Assembly (NCBI GenBank): GCA_035479615.1
Contig: DATIIM010000019.1
Coordinates: 29,590 to 93,589 of the forward strand
Reading direction: 5' to 3'
DNA from: Patescibacteria group bacterium
Lineage (GTDB): Bacteria > Patescibacteriota > Saccharimonadia > Saccharimonadales > UBA4665
DNA: 64,000 nt
Of the stretch, positions 18,564 through 26,109 are shown piece by piece. Made by a program: the position numbers and the translations under genes. Under the pieces are notes generated by a model that saw only the letters and a list, made by a program, of their open reading frames with translations, did no database searches and had not been told where the DNA came from. The number at the start of each line of letters is the position of its first letter. Positions within the stretch are counted from its first letter, which is position 1.

Positions 18564-20006
18564 ATGGCTACCAGTTTTTTCTTTTATGACCTTGAAACGA
18601 GCGGCTTTAGCCCGCGCTCGCACCGCATTATGCAGTTTGCCGGGCAGCGGACAGACTTAGAACTGAACCCGATTGGCGAGCCGGTCGACATCTTAATTAA
18701 AATGACCGACGACAATTTGCCGGATGTTGACGCCGTGCTATTAACCGGCATTACGCCACAGCAAACGATTATGGACGGCGTAACCGAAGCAGAATTTTTG
18801 CGGACATTTACCGACGAAGTTGCCACGCCGGGCACGGTGTTTGTGGGCTTTAACACGATCCGGTTCGACGACGAATTTATGCGCACGCTGCATTACCGCA
18901 ACTTTTACGATGCCTACGAATGGCAGTGGCAGGACAACCGCGGTAAGTGGGACATGCTCGACGTGGTGCGCATGACGCGCGCCCTGCGCCCGGATGGCAT
19001 TGAGTGGCCGTTCGACGCCAAAGGCAACCCAACCAACCGTTTGGAACTGCTCACGGCGCTTAACAAACTGGATCACGAACACGCCCACGACGCCCTCAGC
19101 GACGTTGACGCCACAATTAGCGTGGCACGTTTGATCCGCAACAAGCAAACTAAGCTTTTCGACTACCTGTTTACCATGCGGGACAAAAAGAAGCTGGCTG
19201 AACTCGTCGAATCCAATGAGCCGTTTGTGTATACCAGCGGCAAGTACCCGTCTGAACACGAAAAGACCACGGTTGCCGTGCAATTGTGCGCCCAACCAGA
19301 GCGCAGCGGCGGCGTGCTAGTGTACGATTTGCGCCACGACCCAAATGACTGGATCACTAAAACGCCGGAGCAGCTTGCCGAAGCCTGGCGCTGGAAGAAA
19401 GACAATACCGACCCGCGGTTGCCGGTCAAGGCAATGCAGTACAACCATTGCCCGGCAGTGGCGCCGCTGGGTGTTCTGGATGCTGCCAGCCAAAAACGGC
19501 TGCAAATTGACCCGGCAACGATCCGTAAACACTATGAAACACTTAAGCAAGCTACAGGCTTTGTGGATGCTGTGTGCAAGGCTTTGGAGATCAACAACAA
19601 GCAGCGCCAAACTAGTTTGGTGAGCACTGAAAGCGACGTCGACAGCGCCCTGTATGAAGGGTTCTTTGGCCCGGAAGACAAACGGGCGATGAGCGTGGTG
19701 CGGGCCGCCGCGCCTCAAGAACTTGGCGGCTTGGGTTTGAAGTTCCGCGACCAGCGGCTGGAGGCATTACTGCCGCTTTACAAAGCCCGCAATTATCCCA
19801 AGCTATTAACCAGCGAAGAACGCGAAGAATGGGAACGATTCCGCATTAGTCGCTTGGCTACGGGCGGCACGGGCAGCCAATTGGCCAAGTACTTCGCGCG
19901 CCTGCAAGACGTTATCGCCAAGGGCGGTCTGACTGGCCACCAAGAGTATTTAGTTGAAGAATTACGGCTGTATGCCGAGAGCATCATGCCGGAGCCGGAA
20001 GTTTAG
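18564..20006 (+). CDS. sbcB: Exodeoxyribonuclease I
   Basis: DEDDh motifs FYDLETSG, GFNTIRFDDEF and HAHDALSDV; LLPLYKARNYP. Confidence 0.95.
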   Translation: MATSFFFYDLETSGFSPRSHRIMQFAGQRTDLELNPIGEPVDILIKMTDDNLPDVDAVLLTGITPQQTIMDGVTEAEFLRTFTDEVATPGTVFVGFNTIRFDDEFMRTLHYRNFYDAYEWQWQDNRGKWDMLDVVRMTRALRPDGIEWPFDAKGNPTNRLELLTALNKLDHEHAHDALSDVDATISVARLIRNKQTKLFDYLFTMRDKKKLAELVESNEPFVYTSGKYPSEHEKTTVAVQLCAQPERSGGVLVYDLRHDPNDWITKTPEQLAEAWRWKKDNTDPRLPVKAMQYNHCPAVAPLGVLDAASQKRLQIDPATIRKHYETLKQATGFVDAVCKALEINNKQRQTSLVSTESDVDSALYEGFFGPEDKRAMSVVRAAAPQELGGLGLKFRDQRLEALLPLYKARNYPKLLTSEEREEWERFRISRLATGGTGSQLAKYFARLQDVIAKGGLTGHQEYLVEELRLYAESIMPEPEV

Positions 20007-20007
20007 T

Positions 20008-20565
20008 ATGCGCGTAACTCTAGCTGCTGTTATTTCGCTGGATGGCCGGGCCACGCGGGGCGACGATCCGAACAACCACGCCTGGTCTTCGACCGAGGAC
20101 TGGCACCATTTTATGGAACTCCGCGACCTGTCTGACGCTGTTATTATCGACCGTCTGACGTACGAAACCGTTAAGCCAGAGCCGGAAGCTGCACGGCTCC
20201 GCGTTGTTCTAACCAACCACCCAGGGTTGTACGCTGGCAAAGAAGTACCCAACCAGCTAGAGTTCACCGGCGGGAAGCCCACAACCTTACTCAAGAATTT
20301 ACAGCAGCGCGGCAAACAACGAGTGCTGGTTGCTGGCAACAATGCCTTGCTGCACAGCTTTTTGGCAGCTGGGGTAGTTGACGATTTGTACCTGTCGTTT
20401 GAACCGGTGTTGTTTGGGTCGGGCGAGCCGCTCATTGAAGCACCGCAGACGCTGAACGTCCAACTACAGCTACAAAGTGTCAAGGAATTGAACAAGCAGG
20501 GCACGCTGCTGGCACACTATATCGTGGCGAATACAGGCACGAACACCAGCCAGCCTAGCGCTTAG
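20008..20565 (+). CDS. Dihydrofolate reductase / RibD C-terminal-domain family protein (copy 1)
   Basis: MRVTLAAVISLDG...FLAAGVVDDLYLSFEPVLFGSG. The ATG at 20008 directly follows the sbcB stop; the ORF-track extension overlaps sbcB. Confidence 0.8.
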   Translation: MRVTLAAVISLDGRATRGDDPNNHAWSSTEDWHHFMELRDLSDAVIIDRLTYETVKPEPEAARLRVVLTNHPGLYAGKEVPNQLEFTGGKPTTLLKNLQQRGKQRVLVAGNNALLHSFLAAGVVDDLYLSFEPVLFGSGEPLIEAPQTLNVQLQLQSVKELNKQGTLLAHYIVANTGTNTSQPSA

Positions 20566-20839
20566 CGCCAGGTTTGAACTTCAAGACGAATGCACGCCAC
20601 TTTTTGAGGCCAGCCTTGGCGCCAGTTTTTACCAGGGCGATCAGCCAGTCGCGGACTTTTTCAGCAAAAGCGAACTCAGTAGCCAGAATGGCAAAGCCTA
20701 AGAAAATTGCCGCCCAACCTGGGCCAGGCAGAATCAGCATTGCCAAGCCGGTGAGGATCACGGCTGAACCAATAACCAAAATGAGCGGCTTACGAACAGC
20801 TGCGGGGACCCGTTTCCAGTGTTTAGGCAAATTGCGCAT
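20555..20839 (-). CDS. PGPGW-motif small membrane protein
   Basis: GLAMLILPGPGWAAIFLGFAILATEF, with two hydrophobic segments. Confidence 0.85.
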   Translation of the reverse strand: MRNLPKHWKRVPAAVRKPLILVIGSAVILTGLAMLILPGPGWAAIFLGFAILATEFAFAEKVRDWLIALVKTGAKAGLKKWRAFVLKFKPGAKR

Positions 20840-20909
20840 GCAGGCATTATCGCATCATTCTGGCCAGCACGCTACCGGCCAGGCCAGCGGGATGCTAGAG
20901 TATATGCAG

Positions 20910-21437
20910 ATGAAAGTAGCGATTATTGCCATGGTGTCGGCCGATGGCCGGTTAACCCGCGGCACAGAGACCAATATCCATGCCTGGCGTTCGCCAGAAG
21001 AAGGGGCGATGTTTACCAAGCTACTCGGCCAGCACGAAGTGGTAATCGTCGGCCGCAAAGGGTATGAAGCTGCAGGCAGGCCAAAGCCCCGTGAAGGCCG
21101 GCTGTACGCAGTTATGACCCGCCATCCAGAGCGCTTCAAGGAGCTGACTGTGCCAGACCACTTGGAGTTTATGGATGATTCGCCGCACGACTTAATGCAA
21201 AACCTGCAAAAGCGCGGCTATCATTCCGCGGCAATCACGACCGGCGGTGACTTGAATAACGACTTTTTGGCCGCTGGCGTGGTGGATGAATTGTATTTGA
21301 CCATTGAGCCGTACATGTTTGGTGCGGGCGGCGATTTGGCTGGTACTAAAGCGCTGAACGTCAGTCTGACATTGCTCGATGTGCAGCAGCTAAACGACCG
21401 CGGCACACTGCTGGCACACTACAAACTGGGGCGCTAA
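20910..21437 (+). CDS. Dihydrofolate reductase / RibD C-terminal-domain family protein (copy 2)
   Basis: MKVAIIAMVSADG...GRKGYE...GGDLNNDFLAAGVVDELYLTIEPYMFGAG. Start is 20910 or 20904. Confidence 0.82.
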   Translation: MKVAIIAMVSADGRLTRGTETNIHAWRSPEEGAMFTKLLGQHEVVIVGRKGYEAAGRPKPREGRLYAVMTRHPERFKELTVPDHLEFMDDSPHDLMQNLQKRGYHSAAITTGGDLNNDFLAAGVVDELYLTIEPYMFGAGGDLAGTKALNVSLTLLDVQQLNDRGTLLAHYKLGR

Positions 21438-21438
21438 C

Positions 21439-21468
21439 TTGACAGACCACAGCACATGCCAGTACGCT
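21439..21468 (+). promoter_or_regulatory. Sigma70-type promoter for the transporter/ligase operon
   Basis: TTGACA (21439-21444), 18-nt spacer, TACGCT (21463-21468). Confidence 0.6.
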
Positions 21469-21488
21469 ACCTCAAAAGGAACACCGCT

Positions 21489-21551
21489 ATGTTGATAAAC
21501 AAGCACGTCACTACCTGGTCCGGATTCGTTGAGCGCAGCTCCCTTTGCTGA
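21489..21551 (+). CDS. Putative 20-aa leader peptide MLINKHVTTWSGFVERSSLC
   Basis: Manual translation. AAGGA (21476-21480) lies 8 nt upstream of the ATG. It sits in the leader of the VUT transporter gene. Confidence 0.4.
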   Translation: MLINKHVTTWSGFVERSSLC

Positions 21552-21586
21552 ACGTTTTCTAACCATACATAATATTTGAGGTAGTC

Positions 21587-22264
21587 ATGATACGTAAATT
21601 TGATCTTTTGGTGGCGTTATACATTTTTGGAGTAATGGTAACGGAGTTGATGGGAGCTAAAACCTTTCCGCTGCTGCACGTAAGCTGGGCGCACTTGAAC
21701 GCCAGCGTGGCAATCTTTGTACTGCCGCTACTGTTTACCGCTACCGACGTAGTCGTGGAAGTATATGGCCGGGCCCGGGCCCGTAGCCTGGTATTCTCGG
21801 GCATTTTAATGGTGTTCCTGGTGATGTTGTTCGCTCTATTGGCCACGCATTTGCCAGCTTCGCCGCGCTTTGCCAGCAGAGAAGCTGCTTACGACACAAT
21901 CTTTGGGGCTTCCATCCGCATTGCGGCTGCCAGCTTGACTGCCTTTGCGGTTTCGGAATTGCTCGACGTGGCGATCTTTAGCAAGCTGCGCCAAAAGATG
22001 CACAACAAGGCGTTGTGGCTGCGCAACAACGTGTCGAACTTTGTGTCGATGGGCGTTGACTCCGTGGTCTTCATTACCTTGGCTTTCTACGCCTTTGGGC
22101 ACCCGTTCGGTTCTAATGTGTCATTTTTGACCAGCCTGATTATTCCGTACTGGCTCATTAAGTGTGCCTTTTCGGTCTTTGAAACCCCGTTGGTGTACGC
22201 CGGCGTGCGTTGGCTTAAGGGCACAAAGAAAAGCACTGCTAAGGTTGCTCCGGAAGCCGCATGA
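21587..22264 (+). CDS. VUT/YhhQ-family (queuosine-precursor-type) transporter
   Basis: Multi-TM protein with ASVAIFVLPLLFTATDVVVEVYG, RIAAASLTAFAVSELLDV and WLRNNVSNFVSMGVDS. Confidence 0.88.
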   Translation: MIRKFDLLVALYIFGVMVTELMGAKTFPLLHVSWAHLNASVAIFVLPLLFTATDVVVEVYGRARARSLVFSGILMVFLVMLFALLATHLPASPRFASREAAYDTIFGASIRIAAASLTAFAVSELLDVAIFSKLRQKMHNKALWLRNNVSNFVSMGVDSVVFITLAFYAFGHPFGSNVSFLTSLIIPYWLIKCAFSVFETPLVYAGVRWLKGTKKSTAKVAPEAA

Positions 22265-23016
22265 TAGCCCGCGCCATTCGCACTCGCAAAGTTACGCCTT
22301 CGGCCTGCACGATTTTTGAGCTGCTGGACGAATCCATAACAGAGATGAAGGAGCAGAGTATTCTGGTCATCACCTCCAAGGTCATTTCGCTGTGCGAAGG
22401 GCGCGTGGCGCCAATAGCAGGCACTGACCTGCAAGCGCTGGTACGCGAAGAGGCTGAGCAATACATGCCCGAAGCGCACGCCCAGCACGGGTACACGTTT
22501 ACGATCGCCCACAATATGCTGACGCCTAATTCTGGCATCGATGAATCAAATGCCGACGGCCAGTACGTGCTGTGGCCAAGCGACCCGCAGGCCAGCGCCA
22601 ATGCCGTACGCGAATATTTGTGCGAGCGGTTTAAGCTGCAAGACGTGGGTGTGGTTATTGCTGACGGCGACTTTATTGCGCTGCGCTGGGGCGCCATTGG
22701 GCTGGCCCTGGCATACAGCGGCTTTGAGCCAGTGCGTCACTATGCCGACCAGGTTGATTTGTTCGGACGGCCGCTATTGTATACCCGCACAAACATCATG
22801 GACGCTATTGCCACTTCGGCCACGCTGTTAATGGGTGAGGGGGCCGAACAAACACCGCTCGCGCTGTTTGAAGACCTGCCACCCATCAACTTCCAGCGCC
22901 GCAATCCGACAGCCGAAGAACTGGCTGGCATGCGCGCTACCTTGGCAGAAGATTCATATGCGCCATTGCTGCAGGCAGTGACCTGGAAAGACGGCGGCCG
23001 CAAGACTAGCCCTTAG
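22261..23016 (+). CDS. CofE-like gamma-glutamyl ligase (F420-0:L-glutamate ligase / FolC2 family)
   Basis: VITSKVISLCEG, SGIDESN, GVVIADG, DLFGRPL and MGEGAEQTP. Its start overlaps the transporter stop (ATGA). Confidence 0.85.
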   Translation: MIARAIRTRKVTPSACTIFELLDESITEMKEQSILVITSKVISLCEGRVAPIAGTDLQALVREEAEQYMPEAHAQHGYTFTIAHNMLTPNSGIDESNADGQYVLWPSDPQASANAVREYLCERFKLQDVGVVIADGDFIALRWGAIGLALAYSGFEPVRHYADQVDLFGRPLLYTRTNIMDAIATSATLLMGEGAEQTPLALFEDLPPINFQRRNPTAEELAGMRATLAEDSYAPLLQAVTWKDGGRKTSP

Positions 23017-23026
23017 CTTCAGTTCT

Positions 23027-23232
23027 CCACAAAGAGACTTTTAATATTCTACCTGCTCGTAAACTTCGCTGTCAGAATATTAAAAGTCTCCGCGGCCACT
23101 ATTCTAAGGGATAGGACCTGTAACCTTAGTAGTAAGGTCCGCGGAATAAAAAAGTTTTCGATCGCGCACAGCTTGCGAGCACGACGAAAACTTTTTTATT
23201 TCCCCATGAGGAGCTTAAAAGTCTCTTTGGGG
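23027..23232. repeat. Nested inverted-repeat element (REP/MITE-like or structured RNA)
   Basis: 17-bp perfect inverted repeat (23034-23050 / 23074-23090), 16-bp perfect inverted repeat (about 23145-23160 / 23185-23200), and an outer 15-bp inverted repeat CAAAGAGACTTTTAA / TTAAAAGTCTCTTTG. Confidence 0.7.
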
Positions 23233-23298
23233 GCTAAGGGCTGGCAAAGTTAGCCAATGGCGATGGAGGCGTTTTTCCTGTATAATTAACCCCTGCTT

Positions 23299-26109
23299 AT
23301 GAGTGAGAACATAGTCGTTAAAGGTGCCCGCGAGCACAACCTCAAAAATATTGATGTTGAGCTGCCGCGTAATAAACTTGTGGTAGTGACCGGTCTGTCC
23401 GGTTCAGGCAAGTCTTCCTTGGCATTCGACACGATTTACGCCGAAGGTCAGCGCCGTTACGTCGAAAGCCTCAGTTCCTATGCCCGCCAGTTTCTAGGCT
23501 TGATGGAGAAGCCGGACGTAGATCAGATAGATGGGCTATCACCGGCCATCTCCATCGACCAGAAGTCTACCAGCCGCAATCCGCGCTCGACTGTGGCTAC
23601 GGTCACTGAAATTTACGATTATTTACGCCTGCTTTTTGCCCGTATCGGCATCCCGCACTGCCCGGTCTGCGGCAAACCAGTTACCCGGCAAACAACCCAA
23701 AATATTGTTGACCAAGTAACGCACTTGCCAGCTGGCGCCCGCTTGATGATACTCGCACCGGTCATTACTGATAAAAAAGGTGCTTTTGAGCATATCCCGG
23801 AACAGTACCAACGTGCTGGTTTTGCTCGCGCCCGCGTTGACGGCGTGGTGTATGCCTTGGACGAGTTCCCAGAACTAGACAAGAACTACAAGCACACCAT
23901 CGAAATTGTGATTGACCGCCTAGTAAACGACGAAGAGTCGCGCTCCCGTTTGGCTCAGTCGGTTGAGCAGGGCCTGGAAGTCGCCGAAGGCAAGATCCGG
24001 ATTGTGAACGCCGACGACAGCGAAGAATACCAATACAGCCTGATGTACGCCTGTATTGACCACCCCGAAGTTGCTATCCCTGAACTTGAACCGCGTACCT
24101 TTAGCTTTAACTCGCCGCACGGCGCCTGCCCAGTGTGTACCGGCCTTGGTTCCCGGTTGGAAGTTGACCCTGAACTGGTGATCCCAAACGGCCGGCTGAC
24201 GATTGCCGAGGGCGCCATCCGCCCATTCAACCGCGTGAACGCCGACGCCTGGTACATGAAGAAAATGCAGGCCGTGGCTGAGCGCTACAACTTTAGCCTG
24301 CACGTGCCGACCGGCCAACTTACGCCCGACCAACTCGAAAAAATCCTGTACGGCACTGGCAACGAAAAGTACCGCGTGAGCCTGGGCATGGGCCGCACCT
24401 TCGACACCACCTACGAAGGCGTTATTCCGAACCTGGAGCGCCGCCACAAGGAAACAGAGAGCGAATTCATGCGCAACGACATTGAGCGCTTTATGCAGGA
24501 AAAGCCCTGCTATGCCTGTAAGGGTCTGCGCCTGAAGCCCGAAGTGCTGGCTATTACTGTGGCCGGCCAGTCGATTATGGACATTTGCCAGCTGTCTATC
24601 GACGACGCGGTGGATTTCTTCAACAATGTAAAATTCAGCGCCAAAGAAACGCACATTGCTGCCCAGGTGCTCAAAGAAGTCTGCTCCCGCTTAGGCTTTT
24701 TGAAAGATGTTGGCTTGAACTACCTCACCCTGCTGCGTGGTGCCACGACGTTGTCTGGTGGGGAAGCGCAGCGTATTCGTTTAGCAACGCAGATCGGCTC
24801 TGGCCTGCAGGGTGTGCTGTATGTTTTGGATGAACCGAGCATCGGGCTGCACCAGCGCGACAATGCCCGGCTGATTAAAACGCTTGAGCACTTGCGTGAC
24901 CTTGGTAACACCGTGATCGTCGTGGAGCACGATGAAGACACCATTCGTACCGCAGATTACCTCTTGGACATTGGCCCCGGCGCTGGCGTCCATGGCGGCC
25001 ACGTCGTTGCCGCTGGTACGCCGGCTGAAGTCGAGAAAACTCCCGGTAGTATTACCGGCCAGTATTTGTCTGGTAAGAAAAAGATCGCCACGCCTAAAAA
25101 GCGCCGCCCGGGCAATGGCAAGAGCCTGGTCATTAAAGACGCCCGTGAAAACAACCTGCGCGGTATAGATGTCGAGATCCCCCTTGGCCAGATGGTGGTG
25201 GTCAGCGGCGTGTCCGGTTCTGGTAAGTCGTCGCTTATCAACGACATCCTTGCCAAGGAGCTCCAAGCCCGGCTGATGCGCGCTAACACCGTCCCGGGTA
25301 AGCATGGAGACATCGAAGGCATCAAGCAGCTCGACAAAGCCATTATTATCGACCAATCACCAATCGGCCGCACTCCGCGCAGCAACCCTGCAACGTACAC
25401 TGGTTTGTTTACGCCAATTCGCGAACTTTTTGCCGCGACGCCCGAAGCCAAACTGCGCGGCTACAGCCCGGGCCGGTTCAGCTTTAACGTCAAGGGCGGC
25501 CGCTGTGAAAACTGTTCTGGTGACGGCATTATTAAGATTGAAATGCACTTTTTACCAGATGTGTACGTACCCTGCGAAGTCTGCCACGGCAAGCGTTACA
25601 ACCGCGAAGCGCTGGAGATCCACTACAAGGGCAAGACTATTAGCGACGTGCTGGAGATGACCTGCGAACAAGCGCTGGCGTTCTTTGCGAACCAGCCTAG
25701 CATCGCCCGCAAGCTCCAGACTATGGTAGATGTTGGGTTGGGCTACATCGGTCTTGGCCAGCCTGCTACCACGCTGTCTGGTGGGGAAGCGCAGCGTATT
25801 AAGCTGGCCAGCGAACTGAGCCGCCGGCCAACTGGCCGCACCCTGTATATTTTGGACGAGCCAACAACCGGCCTGCACATGGCTGATGTTGATAAGTTAC
25901 TGCACGTGCTGCACGCCTTGGTAGACACCGGCAACAGCATGGTCGTTATTGAGCACAACCTGGACGTTATTAAATCGGCTGATCACCTCATCGACATGGG
26001 CCCAGAAGGCGGCGCCGGTGGCGGTATGGTTGTTGCCAAGGGTACTCCCGAGCAAGTCGCCAAGGTCGCCGCCAGCTACACCGGCCAATTCCTCAAGCGC
26101 ATGCTGTAG
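23299..26109 (+). CDS. uvrA: Excinuclease ABC subunit A
   Basis: GAREHNLKN, two Walker A motifs ([18 protein letters not shown]), LSGGEAQRI twice, and Zn-finger CxxC pairs. Confidence 0.98.

Follow-up and report, generated by a model that had tools for sequence, protein, structure and literature searches.

Folate-dependent enzymes are common in the ultra-small bacteria of the Candidate Phyla Radiation (CPR). The CPR genomes examined in a 2025 study encoded no homologue of known folate transporters (PMC11974145), and folate carriers were listed as missing for many folate-requiring bacteria in a 2007 survey (PMC1971073). Here we describe a module of four genes, coding for two paralogous reductases of the dihydrofolate reductase (DHFR) type, a transporter of the VUT family (COG1738/PF02592) and a CofE-fold gamma-glutamate ligase, found in a 64,000-nt stretch of contig DATIIM010000019.1 from the genome GCA_035479615.1 (the window; all positions are counted from its first letter). 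From sequence evidence, we consider it probable that the module serves to import, reduce and trap folate under the control of a conserved leader peptide.

The described system closest to the transporter is E. coli YhhQ/QPTR (COG1738, PF02592; b3471), which belongs to the same Pfam family, is similar in size, has about six helices and works without an ATPase partner. The clade of the window transporter differs from it in lying on a long branch, in having no linkage to tgt or to preQ1 riboswitches, in occurring in genomes devoid of TGT and in having folate genes as neighbours. In its proposed role, uptake of monoglutamyl folate by a folate auxotroph, the transporter would resemble ECF FolT (PF12822) and the BT1 carriers (e.g. 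Synechocystis slr0642), and in five CPR loci an ECF-S-like protein occupies the transporter's slot; in contrast, the transporter is unrelated to both families by sequence and neither is present in the window genome. The ligase resembles FolC2 of Chlamydia (CT611; COG1478; TIGR04132), also a CofE-fold ligase of about 250 amino acids beside DHFR-type or other folate genes, in small host-dependent genomes that mostly lack FolC. CT611 complements an E. coli folC mutant (PMC1971073; PMC4161248), and folylglutamate synthase activity of the CofE-fold FolC2 type has been shown for this protein only (PMC1971073). Whereas FolC2 belongs to a de novo cluster, the window ligase stands in a salvage setting without folB, folK or folP; it also differs in its coupling to a transporter (with which it is fused elsewhere), in its coexistence with a canonical FolC and in scoring below the cut-off of the model. 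For both reductases, the best solved match is the DHFR of Thermotoga maritima (PDB 1CZ3/1D1G), with which they share fold motifs and the acid, Phe, Arg and Thr of the folate site; they differ from it, and from the DHFR analogues of the RibD_C class (Rv2671, YyaP), in being two extra paralogues with altered NADPH glycine motifs that score below the DHFR_1 cut-off. The leader peptide recalls metabolite-sensing leaders such as TnaC and SpeFL in being a short conserved upstream open reading frame (uORF) with an invariant Trp, located just upstream of the genes it would regulate, although it has no sequence similarity to them and both ligand and stalling are putative here.

Gene content of the module

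The gene order proposed in an earlier note on this DNA, two paralogous reductases followed by a VUT transporter and a CofE-like ligase, was borne out by Pfam and NCBIfam assignments. Reductase 1 (20008..20565, plus strand, 185 amino acids) and reductase 2 (20910..21437, plus strand, 175 amino acids) both passed RibD_C, with 64 and 52.5 bits, respectively, and the latter also gave 23 bits on DHFR_1. The start of reductase 2 is most likely at 20910, with the ATG at 20904 as an alternative. A leader of 149 nt extends from this gene to the transporter (21587..22264, plus strand), a candidate folate importer that belongs to the VUT family by its scores on PF02592 (Vut_1, 147.2 bits against a cut-off of 27.2) and TIGR00697 (127.1 against 50.95 bits), while on NF008406, the YhhQ equivalog, it reached 61.2 bits against a cut-off of 252. 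The ligase, of FolC2 type (22261..23016, plus strand, 251 amino acids), matched F420_ligase with 114 bits. As the earlier note had stated, the two last genes are coupled: the ATG of the ligase is shared with the TGA of the transporter in an ATGA overlap at 22261-22264, through which the ligase is translationally coupled to the transporter.

Folate economy of the genome

The source genome, which sits in Saccharimonadales as judged by its relatives, comprises 1.27 Mb in 25 contigs and encodes ThyA (346 bits), SHMT (540 bits), FolD and a canonical FolC (270 bits against a cut-off of 163). In this genome, which is 98.96% complete, Pterin_bind/DHPS had no match, making de novo folate synthesis very unlikely, and there was likewise no match to the BT1 folate carrier family or to ECF S-components. 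Neither TIGR00430 nor PF01702 of the TGT family had a match in the genome, which also excludes the DpdA DNA-modification route that had been offered as an explanation for COG1738 genes in bacteria without TGT (PMC5372724). Luciferase-like enzymes (PF00296), the sole F420-dependent family searched, were not found in the genome. Thus, a genome search for tgt, thyA, folC and F420-dependent enzymes recovered the second and third and neither tgt nor PF00296, and as regards TGT and luciferase-like F420 enzymes, the lack of F420 and queuosine genes noted for the window holds genome-wide. Taken together, the presence of ThyA, SHMT, FolD and FolC and the absence of DHPS, known carriers and TGT leave a folate need without a known supply and no client for queuosine; the cell requires folate, apparently makes none, and has neither a recognised import route nor a use for queuosine precursors.

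Conservation of the transporter neighbourhood

An alignment search with transporters of the clade recovered 463 relatives in species-representative genomes. We examined 83 transporter loci, made up of the best 80 of the 463 and those from a first single-protein search (four loci), and called genes in 81 of them, all from other genomes. A folate gene was the immediate neighbour of the transporter in 56 of the 81 loci, in several gene orders, and by tblastn 63 of the 83 had one or more folate genes within 3 kb, indicating that the linkage is conserved across genomes. Anywhere in the fetched stretches of the 81 gene-called loci, a DHFR-like gene was found in 39, a CofE-like ligase in 29, FolC in 7, SHMT in 5, FolD in 4, 5-formyl-tetrahydrofolate (5-formyl-THF) cyclo-ligase in 4 and ThyA in 1, while about 1-2% per gene would be expected by chance. 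The orders seen included reductase-VUT-ligase, VUT-reductase-ligase, VUT-ligase, SHMT-FolC-VUT, VUT-reductase-FolC and cyclo-ligase-VUT-ligase; since the order varies between loci, the link between transporter and folate genes has outlasted many rearrangements.

Next to the transporter, a canonical FolC took the place of the CofE-like ligase in seven loci according to gene calling and in eight according to tblastn. A FolC adjacent to the transporter scored 318 bits on TIGR01499, and an adjacent 5-formyl-THF cyclo-ligase 120 bits against a cut-off of 85. Such alternation of FolC and the CofE-like ligase in one neighbourhood is a classic sign that unrelated enzymes share a function, and it links the transporter to that function. 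Moreover, Vut_1 and F420_ligase were fused in single proteins, namely P0121 (474 amino acids, two samples) and P0122 (445 amino acids). P0121 is one open frame on contigs of two samples, with halves that share 47% and 37% identity with the two proteins of the window. Among 39 ligase-holding genomes surveyed, a VUT-ligase pair occurred in 17, each of which had exactly one VUT, always the neighbour of the ligase; no VUT gene was present in 19 other CPR genomes with the ligase.

The five CPR loci with an ECF-S-like protein belong to VUT-less genomes (Staskawiczbacteria, Daviesbacteria), and in them this protein overlaps the start of the ligase. It is unannotated, with five to six helices, about 224 amino acids, a weak match to PF12822 and the Atlas name ECF S-component (L088:4346-5020; also L042, L076, L083 and L084), and it may be regarded as a second candidate folate carrier.

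Long VUT proteins of the representative library were considered as further ligase fusions and rejected, as they consist of tandem VUT-VUT or of VUT plus unknown sequence. The tandem candidates, of 380-460 amino acids, are P0136, P0166, P0178, P0222 and P0243, with two Vut_1 stretches in four and one in P0243. In a locus from Paceibacterota, an SHMT-VUT-reductase cluster is followed, some 1.2 kb downstream, by an adenosylcobalamin (AdoCbl) riboswitch (L116:5312-5435), whose 55 bits exceed the gathering score.

Two kinds of VUT transporter

In a maximum-likelihood tree, 87 transporters of the CPR type formed one clade (support 100/95) on a stem of length about 4, distant from E. coli YhhQ and from the alphaproteobacterial VUTs that adjoin tgt. 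Of 59 positions conserved in at least 90% of the clade, six were common to all five outgroup VUTs (the family-core positions D54, G61, A119, W144, D158 and P201) and 23 to none. The AlphaFold2 model of the transporter had a predicted local distance difference test score (pLDDT) of 72 and no Foldseek match in the PDB at E ≤0.001; the top rows were ECF S-components, at E ≥0.14 and TM 0.3-0.4, weak and not significant.

None of the 83 clade loci had a tgt gene within 3 kb. We collected 80 loci around tgt of the Saccharibacteria type, in which one Saccharibacteria genome and many Actinobacteria had a VUT next to tgt. These VUTs were only 23-31% identical to the window transporter, and Saccharibacteria therefore hold two kinds of VUT, one linked to tgt and the other to folate genes. 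The cultivated Southlakia epibionticum also carries a 'queuosine precursor transporter' that adjoins tgt (supplement of PMC10633639); given the low identity of the tgt-adjacent VUTs elsewhere, this protein most likely belongs to the other, tgt-linked clade. The TGT of Saccharibacteria was 59-64% identical to that of Arthrobacter, Rhodococcus and Rothia (loci L188-L267; e.g. L188 versus L212 and L224), and a convergent tgt-VUT pair is common to Saccharibacteria (L218) and Actinobacteria. This resemblance suggests that the tgt-VUT pair for queuosine salvage was acquired from actinobacterial hosts.

The ligase resembles folate-type ligases

The best-scoring model for the ligase was TIGR04132 ('putative folate metabolism gamma-glutamate ligase'), with 234.2 bits, about twice its score on the CofE model TIGR01916 (106.7 bits, below the cut-off of 180.65). 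Archaeal CofE enzymes were its only solved relatives (E 7e-17). Other CPR homologues scored 246-270 bits on TIGR04132, and a protein of Finniella, an intracellular alphaproteobacterium, passed it with 357 bits. The Finniella proteins are 42-44% identical to the window ligase, and the Finniella ligase gene directly follows a canonical DHFR, in the manner of folA-folC2 in Chlamydia. The clustering with folate genes that characterizes FolC2 was also found in the window, where two DHFR-type genes lie upstream of the ligase. The FolC2 reading of such ligases is already present in NCBIfam and in some JGI names.

We also surveyed 80 loci encoding relatives of the ligase, whose neighbours were the VUT transporter (17), DHFR-like genes (13), FolD (4), dCTP deaminase (4), SHMT (3), thymidylate kinase (3), 5-formyl-THF cyclo-ligase (2) and ThyA with DHFR (1). 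FolC was absent from 31 and DHPS from 37 of the 39 ligase-holding genomes, suggesting that in CPR bacteria the ligase is usually the sole candidate folylglutamate synthase and acts in salvage rather than synthesis.

Small soluble proteins adjoin the CofE-like ligase in several loci (L037:5738-6259, L024:5723-6256, L057:4241-4753, L030:1322-1768 and L054:4609-5001). They have weak matches to NlpC/P60, CHAP or papain-like amidases, two of them lie behind the same leader peptide as in the window, and they could be gamma-glutamyl hydrolases acting on folate tails.

The two reductases keep residues of the folate site

Reductases 1 and 2 found the T. maritima DHFR as their closest solved relative (1CZ3, E 2.8e-18, and E 2.3e-21, respectively). 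In an alignment to E. coli FolA at about 19-20% identity, in which residue positions are approximate, both keep the equivalents of W22, D27 (Asp/Glu), F31, R57 and T113 (Ser/Thr). Of these, R57 binds the glutamate moiety of folate. The catalytic acid is Asp in reductase 1, where the T113 equivalent is Ser, G43 is replaced by Asp and the GGG motif reads AGNN; in reductase 2 the acid is Glu, T46 is replaced by Gly and the motif reads TTGG. The altered glycine motifs hint at a changed cofactor use or a division of labour, and one enzyme may act on folic acid and the other on dihydrofolate, or the two may use different cofactors.

The paralogy of the reductases noticed earlier was confirmed, with 44% identity over 172 residues, as was the shared 14-mer CTGCTGGCACACTA, with exactly two occurrences (20506 and 21408; 0 expected). 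Gene conversion was considered as the source of this repeat and rejected: CTGCTGGCACACTA encodes the conserved C-terminal LLAHY motif of the reductase family, and it therefore reflects shared coding and nothing special. Relatives of reductase 1 in other genomes reach 56-60% identity, more than its neighbour does, and the two therefore did not arise by recent tandem duplication. All 38 of 38 transporter-adjacent reductases from other genomes were nearer to these two proteins than to the ThyA-linked DHFR. The genome holds four paralogues of the DHFR superfamily, one of which passes DHFR_1 and lies with ThyA in a thymidylate cluster on another contig.

A conserved leader peptide precedes the transporter

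An open reading frame (ORF) of 20 codons (21489..21551, plus strand), which the earlier note had not mentioned, ends 35 nt before the start of the transporter and is a putative regulatory uORF. Of 100 clade transporters, 37 are preceded by its motif, MLxNK[R/H]VTTWS[G/S]F, encoded by 30 different DNA sequences. The motif occurs once in the genome, and the leader has no match among Rfam families. In VUT-less loci, the leader peptide stands directly before the CofE-like ligase. Entropy by codon position was 0.49/0.35/1.15, and this concentration of the variation in the third position argues for selection on the peptide rather than on the RNA. The pattern indicates that the leader is a translated, selected peptide that belongs to the module. 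It probably sets the expression of the module, and may possibly be a ribosome-arrest peptide that senses folate.

Flanking and other features

The module is flanked by sbcB (18564-20006) upstream and uvrA (23299-26109) downstream, and reductase 1 starts one base past the stop codon of sbcB. Between the reductases lies a gene for a small membrane protein of the PGPGW family (20555..20839, minus strand, 94 amino acids; PF09656, 62.9 bits), also missing from the earlier note, which is probably a bystander. Members of the PGPGW family also accompany the module, in varying positions, in several loci of Saccharimonadales (L011-L014, L106, L113 and L118). In the intergenic stretch between ligase and uvrA (23027-23232), the Rfam matches were miRNA-like and at noise level only, and an Rfam scan of 19500-23400 at E up to 5 likewise returned only noise. 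A scan for promoters and terminators found sites no more numerous than in shuffled sequence. The DNA was found in four soil-metagenome runs of a single study, and no RNA run was among those listed.

Outside the window, L180:3253-5505 (G000:C1) encodes a protein of 750 amino acids with an N-terminal thymidylate kinase and a C-terminal ThyX-like (Thy1) domain. Its neighbours are a DHFR of the DHFR_1 class, overlapping a dCMP-deaminase-like gene, and a HIT-NUDIX protein, with ThyA 7 kb off, and together they make an unusual deoxypyrimidine island.

Discussion

The earlier note had supposed that the VUT protein imports a folate- or pterin-type compound for reduction and polyglutamylation, and this idea gains support from the gaps in the genome, the conserved linkage, the exchange with FolC, the fusions and the DHFR matches. 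The sequence data establish which genes are present and in what order, the conserved linkage, the fusions and the gene content of the genome, and from these we infer the transported substrate, the enzyme activities, the trapping by glutamylation and the regulation. From its host or environment, the cell would take up monoglutamyl folate (folic acid, dihydrofolate or 5-formyl-THF) through the VUT-clade protein, and one or both DHFR-type reductases would bring it to tetrahydrofolate (THF). The FolC2-type ligase would then add gamma-glutamates, keeping the folate from leaving through the carrier and providing ThyA, SHMT and FolD with what would be their preferred form of the cofactor. Polyglutamates are poor substrates of folate carriers and are preferred by folate enzymes (PMC1971073), and the ligase would therefore make the uptake effectively one-way. 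Transporter and ligase would be made together, from their overlapping stop and start codons, with expression set by the leader peptide.

Several observations weigh against this reading. The characterised substrates of the VUT family are 7-deazaguanines only (PMC5372724), and TGT is present in 38 of 68 genomes bearing the clade (56%) and absent from 30. About a quarter of the clade loci have no folate neighbour within 3 kb, and the transporter loci are mutually related, so that the counts overstate the number of independent events. Scans of 40 transporter loci at gathering thresholds, like that of the window, detected no THF riboswitch. The ligase does not reach the 350-bit cut-off of TIGR04132. 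Reductase 2 falls short of the 25 bits required by DHFR_1 (PF00186) and reductase 1 has no match to it, while the NADPH-binding glycine motifs altered in each are kept by their relatives. Finally, the window lineage is an exception in having kept FolC beside the CofE-fold ligase. The analogy with Chlamydia FolC2 drawn in the earlier note needs a correction in this respect: with a canonical FolC present, the ligase fills no missing step.

The same observations bear on other explanations of the module. The transporter could be an importer of queuosine precursors (preQ0, preQ1 or queuine), with its folate neighbours being inherited synteny devoid of functional meaning, as its pass on the NCBIfam 'queuosine precursor transporter' model TIGR00697 (127 bits against 51) and the 38 TGT-bearing genomes would allow. 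Nevertheless, the window genome has no gene of the TGT family, with DpdA ruled out too, and TGT is equally frequent in comparison genomes without the clade (11 of 19, 58%), so that clade and TGT are unrelated in occurrence. We had also considered that TGT is absent wherever the transporter occurs, and rejected this on the count of 38 in 68 genomes, which supports independence and not exclusion. Furthermore, no clade locus among the 83 has tgt within 3 kb, the VUT that does adjoin tgt is a different one (23-31% identical), neither the window scan nor the scans of the 40 loci yielded a preQ1 riboswitch, fusions to the ligase exist, and the score on NF008406 is low (61 against 252). We therefore regard a queuosine importer as quite improbable, and the clade may have an additional queuosine-related role in its TGT-bearing relatives. 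Even less credible is salvage of F420 (deazaflavin), the alternative raised in the earlier note, by which F420-0 or a precursor from an actinobacterial host would be imported and glutamylated by the CofE homologue. The Pfam family name F420_ligase, the CofE enzymes as only solved relatives (E 7e-17) and the names given by NCBI and JGI to close homologues, often F420 (e.g. 'coenzyme F420-0:L-glutamate ligase'), agree with it, but the ligase failed the CofE equivalog (107 against 181 bits) and scored twice as high on the folate-ligase model, the genome has no match to the luciferase-like F420-dependent family PF00296, the neighbours of the ligase are folate and thymidylate genes, and it is FolC that substitutes for it beside the transporter.

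In a variant closer to the folate reading, what is salvaged is a piece or precursor of folate. Pteroate, dihydropteroate or a pterin would enter through the transporter, the ligase would act as a dihydrofolate synthase by attaching the first glutamate, and the reductases would finish. In de novo synthesis, a ligase and then DHFR likewise catalyse the two final steps, CT611 stood in for the bifunctional FolC of E. coli (PMC1971073), the separate FolC of the genome could polyglutamylate the product, and DHFR-like genes are the commonest neighbours of the transporter (39 of 81 loci). We nevertheless judge it unlikely, as the 5-formyl-THF cyclo-ligase, SHMT and FolD genes adjacent to transporters point to intact reduced folates, and a free pterin is useless without DHPS and HPPK, of which DHPS is absent. 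There is also only a slim chance that the genes are independent neighbours, or that the carrier is mainly an exporter or exchanger handing reduced folate to a DHFR-less host. It has been proposed that CPR bacteria supply THF to hosts lacking folA (PMC11974145), and a carrier of this size without an ATPase partner could run either way; against export, the coupling to a glutamate ligase favours retention and hence import, and a cell without DHPS must first take folate from outside, while the ATGA overlap, the fusions and the shared leader peptide speak against independence.

For the import, reduction and trapping of intact folate, the window offers a clean case, with no TGT in the genome and a queuosine reading left without a target. 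Particular to this genome are the two reductases, the canonical FolC alongside the ligase and the complete absence of TGT. A literature search found no paper tying COG1738/PF02592 transporters to folate, and folate is unmentioned in a 2024 survey of queuosine-precursor transporters; the databases probably misname the transporter. The broader proposal, that the VUT/COG1738 clade is the missing folate importer of CPR bacteria, a solitary carrier made one-way by a coupled or fused ligase and equipped with a folate-sensing Trp leader, stands in our estimate at even chances. If true, it would close the folate-carrier gap in the CPR with a testable candidate, correct the widespread names 'queuosine precursor transporter' and 'F420 ligase', and extend the VUT family by a new class of substrate, besides providing a simple case of ligase-coupled one-way uptake. 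As epibionts take vitamins from their hosts, knowledge of such uptake would also help their cultivation.

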